54,018 bases of DNA from Octopus sinensis. Taxonomy: Eukaryota. Under the pieces are notes generated by a model. The model was not told the origin of the DNA. It made no database searches and worked only from the letters and a program-made list of their open reading frames with translations. A program made the translations under genes and the position numbers. Positions 49 to 46,085 of the stretch are shown one piece after another (the stretch's first letter is position 1; the number at the start of each line of letters is the position of its first letter). The stretch lies in the NCBI RefSeq assembly GCF_006345805.1, contig NW_021833931.1, forward strand, positions 1 through 54,018. Direction: 5' to 3'.

Positions 49-791
49 TTATTGAAGTAGATAATGAATTTTCTTATTACGGATTATTCAAATGATAACC
101 GACACCTGGGTAGCAAAAAATCACAACAGAAAAAGCACGGTTGAGTTACGACCATGGGGCCTAAAATCCGTGCCTTAGTGCGGAAATTTGCTGCTGTCAG
201 CAGCACTGTATCCTCCCATGACCATTGTTGACAACCCCCTCTCTCTATCAACTGGTTACAGACGAACACACAGACACAGTCTTTTCTGTTGCTTGACCAT
301 TAATACCAGCTATATCTCTCTCCCTTGCTGCCTTCTACACACTGCCACACATACATAGACGCACACACATACATGAAAGCAATTCTCACACTCAAACACT
401 CTAGCACTCATTCTTAAAACAATTCAAATATTAACACCAGTCATACAGAAACATTCACACTCTTTGATGTTCCTGTACTCCCCTTCTGTTACCGGATTTT
501 GACCTTGAATTATCTCAACGGACTTTCTCGTCGGCTTTCACCCAGCTGCGTCAAACGCATATTGAGAGACAGTTTGTGCCATTTATTCCATGGGCTCCTC
601 GTGAGCGTTTGTCGAAAAGCTTGCTGTGCATTTTGTTGGAGAATTAAGTTCCTGGATTTTCCTGAAGAGAAGGCTGCAAAATGGACTCCTTATTCAATCC
701 GAATTAGGGACTTTGCAGCCTTGAAACATATGTAGAAAATAATAAAAAGGAATTTTGTTAAATCTTCGTTCAGCTCCATTTCTTCCTACAC
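49..791 (+). mobile_element. Non-coding PLE-like (pseudo-LTR-type) element embedded in (TA)n, carrying a hammerhead ribozyme
   Basis: Non-microsatellite block bounded on both sides by (TA)n; hammerhead motif at 656-740 directly followed by AATAAA (741-746); no credible ORF. Confidence 0.55.
656..740 (+). ncRNA. Type I hammerhead ribozyme (predicted)
   Basis: Stem I ATTTTC(656-661)/GAAAAT(735-740); core CTGAAGA(662-668); stem II AAGGCTGCAAA(670-680)/TTTGCAGCCTT(712-722); GAAA(723-726); palindromic stem III ACATATGT(726-733); GUA cleavage triplet ending at 734. Confidence 0.8.
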
Positions 792-825
792 TATATATAT
801 ATATATATATATATATATATATAAT

Positions 826-1340
826 ATGTTTTAATAAAATAGAACATATGCATATATATAAACATATATGCACGTACATACCTCTACATGTACATATACA
901 CGCATATATGTGTACAGGACACCAAAAGACGTCGAACAACATGAGAGACGAAACACATAGACACAAACCAGGAACAGACAAGAAGCAAAAAAAAGAGAGA
1001 TACGGGACAATAAGCACAACGAAAAATCCCCTTCTTCAGTCGCTAAGGTTCATCTACTAAACGTTTCGAAGGAAAAAGCGAGACGTATACTTCGAAGAAA
1101 ACTTCCTTCCCGCGAAAAGCAAATCAATTAAAATTCTGAGATCTTTTCGCAGAGGGGTAAAAAAAAGCAAGACGGTAACGACAGTACAAACATATAACAG
1201 TAAAATATATATATATAAACAGTGGAAAAATAAATATATAACAGTGAGAGACAGGACAAGGAGAACAAGATAAGAAGGGCTGTTAACGCCAGACGAAAAA
1301 AGTATTGCAAACGCTGGATATCGTGGACGACGAGAGAGAG
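826..1340. mobile_element. Interspersed non-coding repeat, copy A (same family as 38241-39225), flanked by TA tracts
   Basis: Collinear similarity to 38244-38810, e.g. CCCCTTCTTCAGTCGCTAAGGTT and AAAAGCAAATCAATTAAAATTCTGAGATC. Confidence 0.75.
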
Positions 1341-2126
1341 TATATATATATATATATTATATATATATTTATGTATAATACATGTATATATGTATATATG
1401 CAATATATATATTTTTTTATTTATATTATTATATGATTGAGCTCCACGCATCCATTTCATGTAGGTTTATATATATATATATATATATATATATATATAT
1501 ATATACATACACACCTTACATGCCCATATATATGACACCTCAGCATGGCGACAAATTTTAGGTTGGAGTGCATAATAAAAAAATGTACTTATTTATGCAT
1601 ATATGTGTAACAAATATATATTATATATTTACACACACATACATGCATAAACACATACATAAATGTGAATGAGTGTGCGCGTGTTTGTGTGTATGTGCGT
1701 GTGTGTGTATGTGCGTGTGTGTTTGTGTGTGTGTGTTTATGAACACTTACGTACTCATGCAACGAGAGGAAGAACGATTGCGAGACGATGGTGTTCTGTT
1801 TTTATGGCATCGATTATACAGCTCATAATAACTCGAAAGTTGGATATATGCCATGCATATATGGATATATCATCATCTGGATGAAACTTAGAAATTCACG
1901 CACATCTGCAACCGATGTTCACTTTCACAAGAACTGATGTACAAAGAACAACCAGCTGTTTTTATATGATGTCACTATAAATACTTTCATCCATTCATTT
2001 ATACATGCATGCAAATACATGCATACACACACACACGCACACACCTATGCATGTGCATACATATGTATGTGTATGTATGTATGTATGTATGTGCCTATGT
2101 AAGTATGTATATATATATATATATAC

Positions 2127-42431: not shown

Positions 42432-43096
42432 AAATTTAGAAAAATTAGAAGAAAAGTTTTTTTAAAAGAATATTTCTGTAGTAGTGTTCAGATATAAGAA
42501 GCATTCTGCCTTTCTCTGACTCCCTTGTTTGCACTTGTGTGTTCGAGGTCGTTTTGAGTTCTTGGTAGGATAGGTGAAGAATAAGGAGGCTGATGTGGAG
42601 AGGGGGTGGGGAAATCTGGGAATGCCTTAATGGTCGTATTTTGAATGGTCAGTGGCTGACAGTAGTCGCAGTTCAATTCAGGAATTGTTTATGGAATTTG
42701 CGTAGGCGTTATACTGAAAGACATTAATGACAAGGTAAGGGTGGAAGGGGAGAAGTGAGAAGTAGAAGAAGAAGAAGATGACGATGTTGATGATGATGAT
42801 GATGAAGAAGAAGAAGAAGAAGAAAAAAGAAGAAGAAGAAGAAGAAGAAGAAGAAGAAGAAGAAAAGGAGAAGGAGAAGATGGTGGTGATGATGGTGGTG
42901 ATGATGACGACGATGATGATGATAATGATGATGATGAAGAAGAAGAGGAAGAAGAAGAAGAAGAAGAAAAAAACAGAGAAGGGAGAATATGAATGGGTGA
43001 AAGTAGATAGATGTGATGGGGCTGATTAGTAATGGATTCTATGGAGTGTAATATTTGTGTGTGTATATATTTCTTTTATTCTGAAGTTGAGGTATA

Positions 43097-43567
43097 TTAA
43101 TTGTTTGTCGTAGACCCGTTAAGAAGTGGCTTGTATTTTGTAATAAAGAGATTTTCTTTACTCATTCGTTGTCTCGAGGTTGTATCGTCCCTAAATTGGT
43201 AGAGGGGGAAAATCCTGAAGTTTGGTGTTTTTTTGTTGGCGCAAGTATCTATGTGTTGGCTAAAAGCTATTTTTCTGTTTTGGGGAATTTTTATCTGGAA
43301 TCTGTGCAGGGCCATTCGTTTACGCAAACCATTTTTTGTTTGGCCTATGTACTGCTCTTGACACCCGGAGCAGGTTAGTGAGTATATTAGGTTCTCCGAA
43401 GCACATGTGAAGTTGCTTTTCACTGTAAACCGTTGTCCCTGTTTGAAGGAGAACTCTGATCCCTCAATTAGATAGTCGCATATCCCGCAATTGGGTCTTC
43501 CACATTTTTTTACTGTCGGCTTCTGTGTTGAAGAGTGAATTCGGGCTTGTGTTAGGAGACTTTTCAT
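43097..43567 (-). pseudogene. GIY-YIG endonuclease portion of the PLE ORF (open segment)
   Basis: LIY-x10-YIG, LRKRMALH, KENLFITKYKPLLN; upstream Cys-rich linker. Confidence 0.92.
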
Positions 43568-46085
43568 GGATCTAGGCTGTCTTTTGCTTTTTATGATCGT
43601 GTGTGTTTGGAGGATTGTGTCATCTGTGGTCTTTTTTTAGGAGGGGTGGTTGTGGAGGATGGTGTCGAAGGCTTCGTTACTGAGAGGGTTGTGTGTGGAG
43701 ATGTATGGTAAGGCTTTTGGTTGTAAGTTTTTCTTTGATTTGGGATGTCTCAGTTCCTTGATGTTAAGTTGAAGGGCACGTTGAATGCACTTGTCAATAA
43801 GTGAAGGTGGATAGTTCCTGGTGATAAGGGTATCTTTTAGTTTTTGTAGTCGTGTGTCTCTGGTGTTTGCGTTAGAGACTATAGTGCATATCCTTTTTGC
43901 TATAGATTGAAGGGGATATTCATCCTGGTGTGTCTGGGGTGGCATGAATTGAATGGAAGATATTGCTTAGAGTCTGTAGGCTTATAGTATATGTGTTTCT
44001 ATTATATTATTAGCTTTCTTAATGAGGATATCGAGGAAGGGGAGTTGTTGCTGGCTATATTCCATCGTGAATTGGATGTTTACGTCCAGTCCGTTTAAAA
44101 TTTCCTGGAATTCTATGAGTTTTTCTATATTTTTATGCCAAAGGATGAAACAGTCATCTAGATATCTCTTCCAGTTGTTTTCTATGTAGATGAAGAAAGG
44201 GCTGCCATATCTTTCTAGAACCTTACGATACAGACTGATCTCTAGGTATCCTATGACTAGGTTGGCAAAGGAGGGGGCCATTCGTGTACCCATCGCAGTC
44301 CCCGATTTTTGTCGGTAGAAGTGTCATTGAAGGCGAAGAAGTTATTTTCCAGGATGAATTAACCCCTTCTATCACAAATTCTTTTTTGATGCGGTGTGGC
44401 AGTTCGTTGGCGTGATTCTCTAGCCAGAATTGGATTGCCTCTAGTCCTAGGTTGTGGGGGATATTGGAGTAGAGGTTGACTACATCGAAGGATACCAGTA
44501 TGGTGTTTTTGTTTATAGTATTCGGTGGTGATTGAGCATATCTAAGTCGTCCCTTATATAGCTTTTGACATGTTTGAGGAGTGGTTTTAACAGGGTGTCT
44601 AAAAAGTTACTGAGGCGGTGGGTTTCGCATGCGGGACCCTGCTATTATGGGTCTCAATTGAGGTCATTAGGATTAGGGACTTTAATTATTTTGTCTGTAG
44701 CTATCTTGCATGCGTTGCTTATTTTTTCACTTTTGTGGATCTTAGGTATACCGTAGAATTGGCTAGTTTTACTTGTGAAATTGGTCATATAATCATATTC
44801 TTTGTCGGTGAGCCCTGCTTTGTATGGGTTTAATATGGATTTTAGTTCCCTCATTATTTTTTGTTGGCTGTAGTTTTGTGCCTTTTCATAGTATGTTGTG
44901 TCTTCCAGCATAGAAAGTACGAAAGTTATGTAAAACGTCGTATCCATTAAGACAACAGCACTCCCTTTATCGGCCTCTTTGATTGTTATTGTTTTTTATC
45001 TTGTTAATTTGTTCAACTCAGCCCATTCTTTTTTGCTGAAGTTTGGTTTGTGTTTTTGTTTGTGCATATGTTGATATGGGTAATTAGATATGTGGTCACA
45101 GAAATCATCAGGTGTTTTGTTCTTACCTTTCGAGGGGGTGTAGTTACTCCTATTTCTGGCTAACGATTCGTCCTCGTTGTATTTATCGTATAGCTCCTCA
45201 GTAAGTCTTAATTTTCTGCAGAATTCTGCGATGTCTTCTTTCATTTCGTTGTAGTTGGGGTGTTGTGGGGTGGGTGTAAACTTGAGTCCTTTGGAAAATA
45301 TGTTTATTTGGTTTGCTGTTAGTTTCTTGTGAGTTAGATTGATAATTTTTATTACTTTTGGTTCCTCCTGCTTGTTTGGGTGCTATCTTGTGTCTCTGTG
45401 TTTGCGTATTGGGTCTAAAAAGAATGCGGTGGTTGGGACGGTAGCTATTATATAGTTTTGTCTTTGTTGATGTGGGGTCTCCTGTTGTGATTTATGGTGT
45501 GTGTTCTTGGAGCAGTATTGAGGAGAGCATCCCGATATCCCATATTCGGGTGTGGTGTTCTAGGAGGCCTTCGTTGGTAATCATTGTAAGTGGAGTGGGT
45601 TTGTTGTGCATGGTTGTTTAACCGGTTTATGGGGCGGAGATTTCGTTAGTAACTCTTTTGGGTGGGGATAAGGTTGCAGTGTCTATGCTGTGGGTGTTGA
45701 TTTATCCTTTCTCTGCTTGAAGTGGGGGTATTCCTGATATTGTAACGCTGGCTGCTTACAGAGTTAGGGTTAGGCCCTGTATTCTTTTTTTGACAGTAGT
45801 GAAGGTTCCGATTTTTAGACAGGTGTGTATCGGTGTTTGGGTGTTGTTTTGGTTTTCTTATTTTCTGGAAAGGGTTGTTGGAGGCGTGCTCTGTTTGAAA
45901 GACGGCTTCATAGTCTGAGAACCAAATGGCGTTTTTCTCCCAGCGTTGGAGAGATTTTAGTTATATATTTTAGATATATATATAGATTTTATTTATATAT
46001 ATATATATATATATATAATATATATATATATATATATATATATATATATGTATGTATGTATGTATGTATGGATGTATGTATGCAC

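Follow-up and report, generated by a model that had tools for sequence, protein, structure and literature searches.

Animal retrozymes of the non-LTR (long terminal repeat) kind are non-coding tandem units with one hammerhead ribozyme per unit; they are defined by type-I hammerheads and mostly measure 170-400 nt (51-972 bp in preprint 10.64898/2026.07.22.740005), and such hammerhead repeats have been proposed to be non-autonomous derivatives of Penelope-like elements (PLEs) (PMC7229834; 10.64898/2026.07.22.740005). Among the PLEs themselves, the Naiads insert in (TA)n, form tails, partial tandems and inverted copies, and are reported without a canonical hammerhead, some being flagged 'HHR_half_core' (PMC8557442). 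The type SGC hammerhead, whose blocks follow each other in the order cut site, GAAA, CUGAnGA (S-G-C), is described from metatranscriptomes, with none in genomes of known organisms (PMC10085705). Here we analyse one entire 54-kb contig of Octopus sinensis (NW_021833931.1, 54,018 nt, hereafter the window), which is rich in microsatellites. A first-pass annotation had read it as a system in which four unrelated, hammerhead-bearing non-coding passengers are mobilised by Neptune-type PLEs. We find that the four flagged hammerheads are the 3' repeats (pseudo-LTR, pLTR) of coding PLE families, here families 1 to 4, and this part of the window follows known PLE biology. A fifth family, absent from the list of that annotation, is the true passenger: it is non-coding, carries a ribozyme and ends in TA, and we did not find the split-core variant of its hammerhead in print. 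Taken as a whole, the window is quite probably a collection of separate insertions, truncated at the 5' end, with the four flagged hammerheads lying in cis in coding PLE families, while the rewired hammerhead of the passenger is predicted to cut and its RNA was likely copied into (TA)n in trans by the reverse transcriptase (RT) of a PLE.

The hammerhead of the protein-free repeat, family 5

The family 5 unit is 860-920 bp long, holds no open reading frame (ORF), occurs head-to-tail and has a fixed 3' end that abuts TA. First-look candidates for three of its subfamilies numbered 3,724, 2,095 and 3,766, and a two-block pattern had 2,142 exact matches in the genome, compared with 0 for the reversed control, so that there are at least 2,142 copies, dispersed over many chromosomes. 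Same-strand repeats lie 862-916 bp apart at 15 loci, some of them overlapping, and among 90 copies taken in order of position a head-to-tail junction was present in 16 and an inverted end at most 700 nt upstream in 6. The copies have one fixed and one ragged end, an optional tail of 35-45 nt and inverted 5' pieces, and those of subfamily B are 95-96% alike, i.e. young. No PLE protein match was found in 30 position-ordered loci, and 2 were found in 60 loci picked by BLAST, both on the opposite strand. In 74 of the 90 copies a (TA)5 tract follows the motif at a distance of 190-335 nt (8% of random 40-nt flank windows hold (TA)4), and this count is inflated by the TA-rich 3' part of the unit itself. 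Contigs from four other sequencing runs, belonging to four studies and bearing four other organism labels, cover all 26 bins of the motif region; those from runs guessed to be RNA also cover family 5, and such contigs carry no information on ends, strand or circles. The family 5 pattern had no match in metagenome contigs.

Family 5 does not carry a type-I hammerhead. The blocks run instead as cut site, GAAA, CUGAnGA, an order that matched twice in the window and never in 30 shuffles, and that was present in 22 variants among the loci. All the bases of the hammerhead core are there, in a non-circular permutation, with the core split between A9 and G10.1, and the strands follow as X'-H-II5'-[III3', cut, I3']-[II3', GAAA, III5']-[I5', CUGAnGA]-X. 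Stems I and III covary, being 97.9% paired over 17 sequences with double changes in 9 of 14 pairs. The strand after CUGAnGA pairs with a far-upstream strand (helix X), next to which come hairpin H and then II5' of stem II, and this split-core pattern fits 125 copies in 47 variants. Over five helices and 24 pairs, 15 chosen sequences were 96.7% paired, with double changes in 15 pairs and compensating changes in every helix, compared with 42.6-47.0% for slid controls. Moreover, the stems are spelled with different letters across about six subfamilies, with the cut triads GUC, GUA, GUU and AUA, while the core bases and the NUH triads stay constant. The spacer pairs with the upstream link, giving a sixth helix that also has different letters in most subfamilies and passes through a GA/GA loop; in the Naiad-type version this loop fits a kink-turn. 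Where PLE hammerheads put up with a single additional base between A9 and G10.1, helices X and H would here make up a four-way junction, and the sixth helix would extend stem III through a kink-turn-like internal loop.

By eye, the same fold is present at the 3' ends of the Naiad_Obim and Naiad_Ovul consensus sequences (supplement of PMC8557442). A Naiad-type motif has 254 exact sites in the genome, and 10 of 30 pass a strict motif test. Separately, a TA-ending family unrelated in sequence, seen at loci L337 (minus strand, near 5830-5960) and L478, has the same rewired fold with a 7-bp stem III and an AUC triad.

The closest described ribozyme is the type SGC hammerhead, of which HRIMA-1 is an example, and family 5 shares with it the S-G-C order, the short linker between stems I and II, the core bases and a pseudoknotted core (PMC10085705). 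It differs in that block C of type SGC is contiguous and a helix joining stems I and II is needed, whereas in family 5 II5' precedes the S block and the core is broken after A9 by helices X and H; furthermore, type SGC comes from metatranscriptomes and family 5 from thousands of chromosomal copies (PMC10085705). It is nonetheless conceivable, if unlikely, that family 5 is a plain type SGC hammerhead with a GGGG/CUUC stem II, and that the upstream GAAGG strand, X and H serve as an off-switch. The block order and the I3'-II3' linker of 2-6 nt are those of PMC10085705, and in 98.3% of cells the contiguous stem II is paired, two of its pairs being G-U, with a single double change. By comparison, the upstream stem II consists of Watson-Crick pairs and shows 3 double changes, covariation extends to X and H, and the three together fit better than the contiguous block C; the strand that follows the core fails to pair with II3' in the versions of Naiad and L337 type. 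The helix that in type SGC links the distal sides of stems I and II is not supported (81% paired, 119 of 500 shuffles), and the spacer pairs with the upstream link and not with the partner this helix would give it. Plain SGC gave way to the split core. Two observations weigh against the split core nevertheless: the pairing of the contiguous stem II just given, as a result of which the two stem II folds may compete, and the kinship of the aligned sequences, which represent about six independent subfamilies, so that the shuffle counts measure consistency and are not probabilities. Two further types were tried and set aside, type II because its stem I is poor and one large subfamily has G at position 17, and type GCS for want of a stem III. 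In the literature, whose subscription papers and supplements we could cover little, we found no hammerhead with a permuted order or a split core described from Naiads or from any animal genome.

Predicted cutting, spread and probable Naiad relatives

If the split-core hammerhead cuts itself, as predicted, multimeric family 5 transcripts would be cut to unit length, and reverse transcription would start inside the RNA at the fixed 3' end and often stop near the cut 5' end; such an internal start at a fixed end has been seen in vitro for a Poseidon element (PMC11167929). The 5' ends of the inserted copies are in line with this. Among the 90 copies, the start falls 0-13 nt upstream of the G block, hence 3' of the predicted cut, in 14, within the next 32 nt in 7 and further upstream in 69, giving a rate ratio of 3.9 (binomial p 7e-4; 60-nt windows, 53 reference copies, all 90 loci retained). 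In the copy at L414 a 6-nt deletion ends at the predicted cut, and in that at L448 a junction lies at it, preceded by a short repeat.

Several points count against cutting. The 5' ends are most frequent 5-8 nt upstream of the G block and not at the 12-13 nt of the predicted cut, an offset that trimming to microhomology would have to explain; truncations lying further 3' escape the search pattern; and a first analysis with 700-nt windows gave no pile-up of 5' ends, because matching microsatellite flanks inflated the extents. One could accordingly suppose that the fold is real and its cutting lost, the structure being kept for binding a PLE protein while new copies are made from uncut tandem transcripts. 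Insertion by an anole Poseidon element in vitro was unimpaired by hammerhead mutants, with no reads ending at the cut site; 8 of 9 Xenopus retrozyme dimers showed no cleavage, and 69-76 of the 90 inserted family 5 copies extend across the predicted cut. Against this, the core bases and NUH triads are kept while the stems change their letters, and 5' ends are enriched just 3' of the predicted cut; we consider this reading improbable. Spread as DNA, by unequal exchange of the satellite type or as rolling-circle DNA with no RNA step, is a still more distant prospect and seems to us highly doubtful. The head-to-tail units 862-916 bp apart are what it would produce; however, the dispersal over many chromosomes, the fixed and the ragged end, the optional tail and the inverted 5' pieces are not, and arrays were seen with 2-3 units only.

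We lean, with some reserve, towards the following picture: family 5 and the octopus Naiads would share an active S-G-C hammerhead that lies outside the six permutations, with a core split by a four-way junction and a kink-turned stem III, which would be the ribozyme that Naiads seemingly lacked; it would cut tandem transcripts in vivo, and the resulting RNA of 870 nt would have spread to thousands of (TA)n sites through a borrowed PLE enzyme.

The ribozyme fold points to Naiads as the relatives of family 5. The 3' ends of the octopus Naiad consensus sequences share with it the six-helix fold and the (TA)n target (PMC8557442), and family 5 differs in that it lacks an ORF and resembles none of the Naiad-type ends compared at the DNA level. 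Family 5 likely descends from a Naiad 3' end, to judge from this shared fold, and its present mover may be a Naiad, a young Neptune-type family or a young Hydra family. A pyrimidine-rich Neptune-type neighbour (locus L335) was tried as a parent and gave no match. The Naiad relationship meets its own difficulties: blastn of the family 5 monomer against 30 Naiad-type ends, which represent one Naiad lineage only, returned no match, and no ORF was found within 1.5 kb of 30 Naiad-type loci. In addition, cephalopod Naiads are reported to be long inactive (PMC8557442), whereas subfamily B is young.

The general idea of ribozyme passengers, put forward in the first-pass annotation, is already published for non-LTR retrozymes (PMC7229834; 10.64898/2026.07.22.740005). 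Family 5 resembles these in its non-coding tandem units with one hammerhead each, and departs from them in the length of its unit and in its non-circular permutation, and their descriptors would miss it. Non-circularly permuted hammerheads were previously known from environmental RNAs only, with an uninterrupted core, and a genomic, high-copy and covarying version with a split core would widen the definition of the hammerhead. It would also account for the failure of descriptor searches to report a canonical hammerhead in Naiads, and would show that retrozyme surveys based on type-I descriptors miss entire families. Moreover, whether PLE ribozymes cut in vivo and shape insertion becomes testable, as thousands of 5' junctions can be compared with one predicted bond, and the split-core RNA, of about 135 nt, is easily assayed.

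The flagged hammerheads and their coding families

A type-I hammerhead descriptor matched four times in the window, compared with a mean of 0.12 and a maximum of 2 in 100 shuffles: complete motifs lie at 662 (+), 2278 (+) and 2241 (-), and a worn one at 39481 (-). Thus, two of the four motifs first flagged are complete type-I hammerheads (656-740 and 2272-2362), while the copies at 31817 and 42387-42423 are damaged and fail the descriptor. In Rfam, hammerhead families were absent from the best 150 of 275 window matches, and in 6 loci none reached the gathering score. The stem III palindromes reported earlier, ACATATGT, ACGATTGT, ACGT and ACCGGT, are all present and self-pairing as dimers, which is a trait of dimer-type PLE hammerheads. 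Families 1 to 4 agree with published PLE hammerheads in being type I, in the palindromic stem III, in the extra base between 9 and 10.1 and in the U3-A8 variant; opposite-strand twins and mostly solitary, truncated copies are likewise shared, and family 5 does not fit this description. The motifs are no single-copy chance matches, as all four families are multi-copy in the genome (first-look candidates: 1400 for the motif at 656, 522 for 2272, 6584 for 31817 and 1825 for 42380). Clade names given below for these families, as for all others here, come from motifs and not from a tree, which weakens them.

Families 1 and 2 are Hydra-like by these motifs. In family 1, at least 1.56 kb upstream is common to 6 of the 30 best loci, and six long copies have RT and C-terminal endonuclease ORFs; the RT has DKT and the RW(L) motif, where the Hydra marks are a change of DKG to DKT and RWK. 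In family 2, about 1.5 kb upstream is common to 3 of 30 loci, and a pair of long copies align without a break for 2.86 kb at 98%, a stretch that extends from the endonuclease ORF to the 3' end. The endonucleases of both families are C-terminal and, by motif, GIY-YIG-like, with CxxC and CxH and without CCHH, and match each other in blastp with an E value of 2e-26. The Hydra clade is marked by DKT, a CxCx5C linker, no CCHH, CxxC with CxH, a canonical hammerhead and (TA)n (PMC8557442); the two families share the last four of these, while DKT is seen in family 1 and the linker in family 2. The difference lies in family 1 (ORFs at L064:841-1954 and L067:988-3453), which lacks the linker although (TA)n closes it in 30 of 30 loci, and this argues against the linker directing TA targeting. 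Two facts tell against the Hydra-like assignment: no Pfam family matched the ORFs of families 1 and 2, and the reading of family 2 covers the endonuclease only, with the RT core outside its reach.

Family 3 is Poseidon-like. Its ORF has an RT, followed C-terminally by a GIY-YIG domain, with no zinc-finger linker, and presumably belongs to Penelope/Poseidon, a name taken from motifs. In the window copy, 10 nt are deleted from the hammerhead at 31817, including the CUGAUGA core; the genome holds 1,951 exact copies of the intact 35-nt core (control 0). The pLTR follows the ORF stop codon in 13 of the 14 Poseidon-like loci that reach the end of the ORF, and is also found before the ORF start, so that it stands on both sides of the ORF; family 3 was accordingly dropped as a free, tRNA-headed short interspersed element (SINE). 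Inverted 5' pieces are present in 54 of 90 loci. The tRNA-like head begins 35 nt past the stop codon (L175, L179, L173), and there is no TTTT in the pLTR. The evidence for a tRNA-like head with A and B boxes is divided: scored against 27 genomic tRNAs, 5 heads reach 52-58.5, with shuffled bests of 28-31 and a maximum of 42; ARAGORN called a tRNA in 0 of 23 heads, and Rfam matched neither a tRNA nor a hammerhead on the one head submitted. Among 90 position-ordered copies, 49 retain part of the head, 29 reach its start and only 6 extend 25 nt or more past it, and these 5' ends mark either the element's own transcript start or a short RNA of RNA polymerase III (Pol III). The Penelope/Poseidon clade also lacks the linker, and family 3 differs from it in a pLTR that starts with a tRNA-like segment (PMC8557442). 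The schistosome Sm-alpha/Sj-alpha SINE-like repeats similarly join a Pol III-type promoter to a hammerhead (PMC6765202), and the tRNA-bearing TRIMs (miniature retrotransposons with terminal repeats) named Helenus have a tRNA-like segment within the terminal repeat (PMC10886601); in contrast to both, the head of family 3 belongs to the pLTR of a coding Poseidon-like element, and its use of Pol III is putative.

The family 4 hammerhead is the 3' end of the element at 42333-45960 itself. The stem II G lost from the window copy is kept in 29 of 30 loci, and the core UUGAAAA is found in 30 of 30; covariation of U3 and A8 has been described in hammerheads (PMC4209133). This element and the older one at 32850-35011, in which no recognisable hammerhead is left, are 65% identical in DNA and both have a CX2-5CxxC linker and CCHH in an endonuclease of the GIY-YIG type at the C terminus, features that do not separate Neptune from Nematis. 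With GxKF/DKG, the zinc-finger linker and CCHH, they share the marks of the Neptune/Nematis clade (PMC8557442). The three coding remnants seen at first are thus PLE-type as proposed; the Neptune label suits these two, and 39764-40062 is Poseidon-like.

This leaves little room for the view that the four hammerheads mark unrelated non-coding families moved in trans into TA by Neptune-type PLEs, which we regard as very improbable. Most copies are short and ORF-less, all four families are multi-copy, three of them end in (TA)n (30/30, 27/30 and 30/30 loci for the families at 656, 2272 and 42380), and of the 29 family 3 copies that extend to the tRNA-like head, 23 end at it, as expected for a separate short RNA. 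Against this, the long copies run unbroken into their own RT and endonuclease ORFs, each flagged motif lies in cis in its own coding family, three PLE clades are involved, and family 3 avoids TA (0 of 29 full 3' ends), so that (TA)n flanks are not a trait of the motif at 31817. The label of non-coding passengers is wrong for all four, and mobilisation in trans is already contradicted for families 1, 2 and 4. The short window copies are ordinary 5'-truncated or inverted PLE insertions; PLEs typically yield short copies, alternative tails and inverted 5' pieces.

Features and further observations in the window

The suggestion that self-cleaving sites sit inside introns is unsupported in the window: among 137 non-PLE ORFs of at least 60 aa the single Pfam match is a DDE transposase, although short exons would escape this search. 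The features discussed above are collected in Table 1.

Table 1. Hammerhead-bearing and PLE-derived features of the window, with the motifs and predicted cuts they contain
Feature	Position	Strand	Details
Family 1, inverted copy of 190-nt tail (pLTR end into ORF start)	49..190	-	
Family 1, 5'-truncated 3' end (pLTR) of coding Hydra-like PLE	194..791	+	terminates in (TA)n
Family 1, type-I hammerhead	656..740	+	11-bp stem II, palindromic stem III ACAUAUGU, predicted cut after GUA (734)
Family 5 subfamily B, 5'-truncated copy of non-coding 863-bp unit	825..1347	-	96% to genomic monomer
Split-core permuted hammerhead, subfamily B	1028..1157	-	predicted cut 3' of C at 1082
Blocks of the subfamily B hammerhead	X' 1153-57, hairpin H 1110-52, II5' 1104-09, S block 1077-87, G block 1061-72, C block 1033-44, X 1028-32	-	
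Family 2, inverted 5' pLTR copy	2122..2266	-	second full hammerhead 2157-2247
Family 2, 3' end (pLTR) of coding Hydra-like PLE	2269..2511	+	hammerhead 2272-2362; terminates in (TA)n
Family 3, inverted 5' piece of pLTR	31565..31627	-	
Family 3, solo pLTR of Poseidon-like PLE	31628..31940	+	tRNA-like head ~31637-31710, (AAT)n spacer, minimal hammerhead 31817-31851
Old broken Neptune/Nematis-type PLE	32850..35011	+	between TA tracts; CxxxxCxxC linker, CCHH-type endonuclease
Family 5 subfamily A, one full non-coding monomer and ~80 nt of the preceding monomer's 3' end	38237..39232	-	between TA tracts
Split-core permuted hammerhead, subfamily A	38452..38584	-	hairpin H with two mismatches; predicted cut 3' of C at 38508
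Inverted repeat, arms 82% alike, worn type-I-like motif at 39481 (-)	39388..39767	none	adjoins Poseidon-like RT fragment; worn motif on each arm
RT fragment of family 3, owner of the 31628-31940 pLTR	39764..40062	+	
Young frameshifted Neptune/Nematis-type PLE	42333..45960	-	GxKF, DKG, CGRPNCGIC linker, GIY-YIG with CCHH; terminates in (TA)n
Family 4, minimal type-I hammerhead	42387..42423	-	U3:A8 core (UUGAAAA), palindromic ACCGGU, one stem II G lost

The flanks of loci L008, L064, L072, L102, L309 and L335 hold further minimal hammerhead-like families and another Neptune-type element, so that the number of PLE families in the genome exceeds what the window shows. Three dispersed SINE-like families are also present, the first at 3396-3734, 7316-7639, 9096-9328, 26350-27822 and 30899-31128, the second at 6937-7119, 41065-41471 and 46116-47180, and the third at 4784-5164 with 26901-27281. 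One of the three ends in (TA)n as well; TA tracts are therefore not specific to PLE ends. An inverted repeat of about 230 bp (88% alike) at 9877-10466 and 10865-11092, with a DDE transposase fragment, is likely a mariner-type remnant. Finally, a GC-rich triplet-repeat block at 22800-25900 forms a near-identical tandem duplication with a period of about 1.3 kb (99%), which is either a recent duplication or an assembly artefact.

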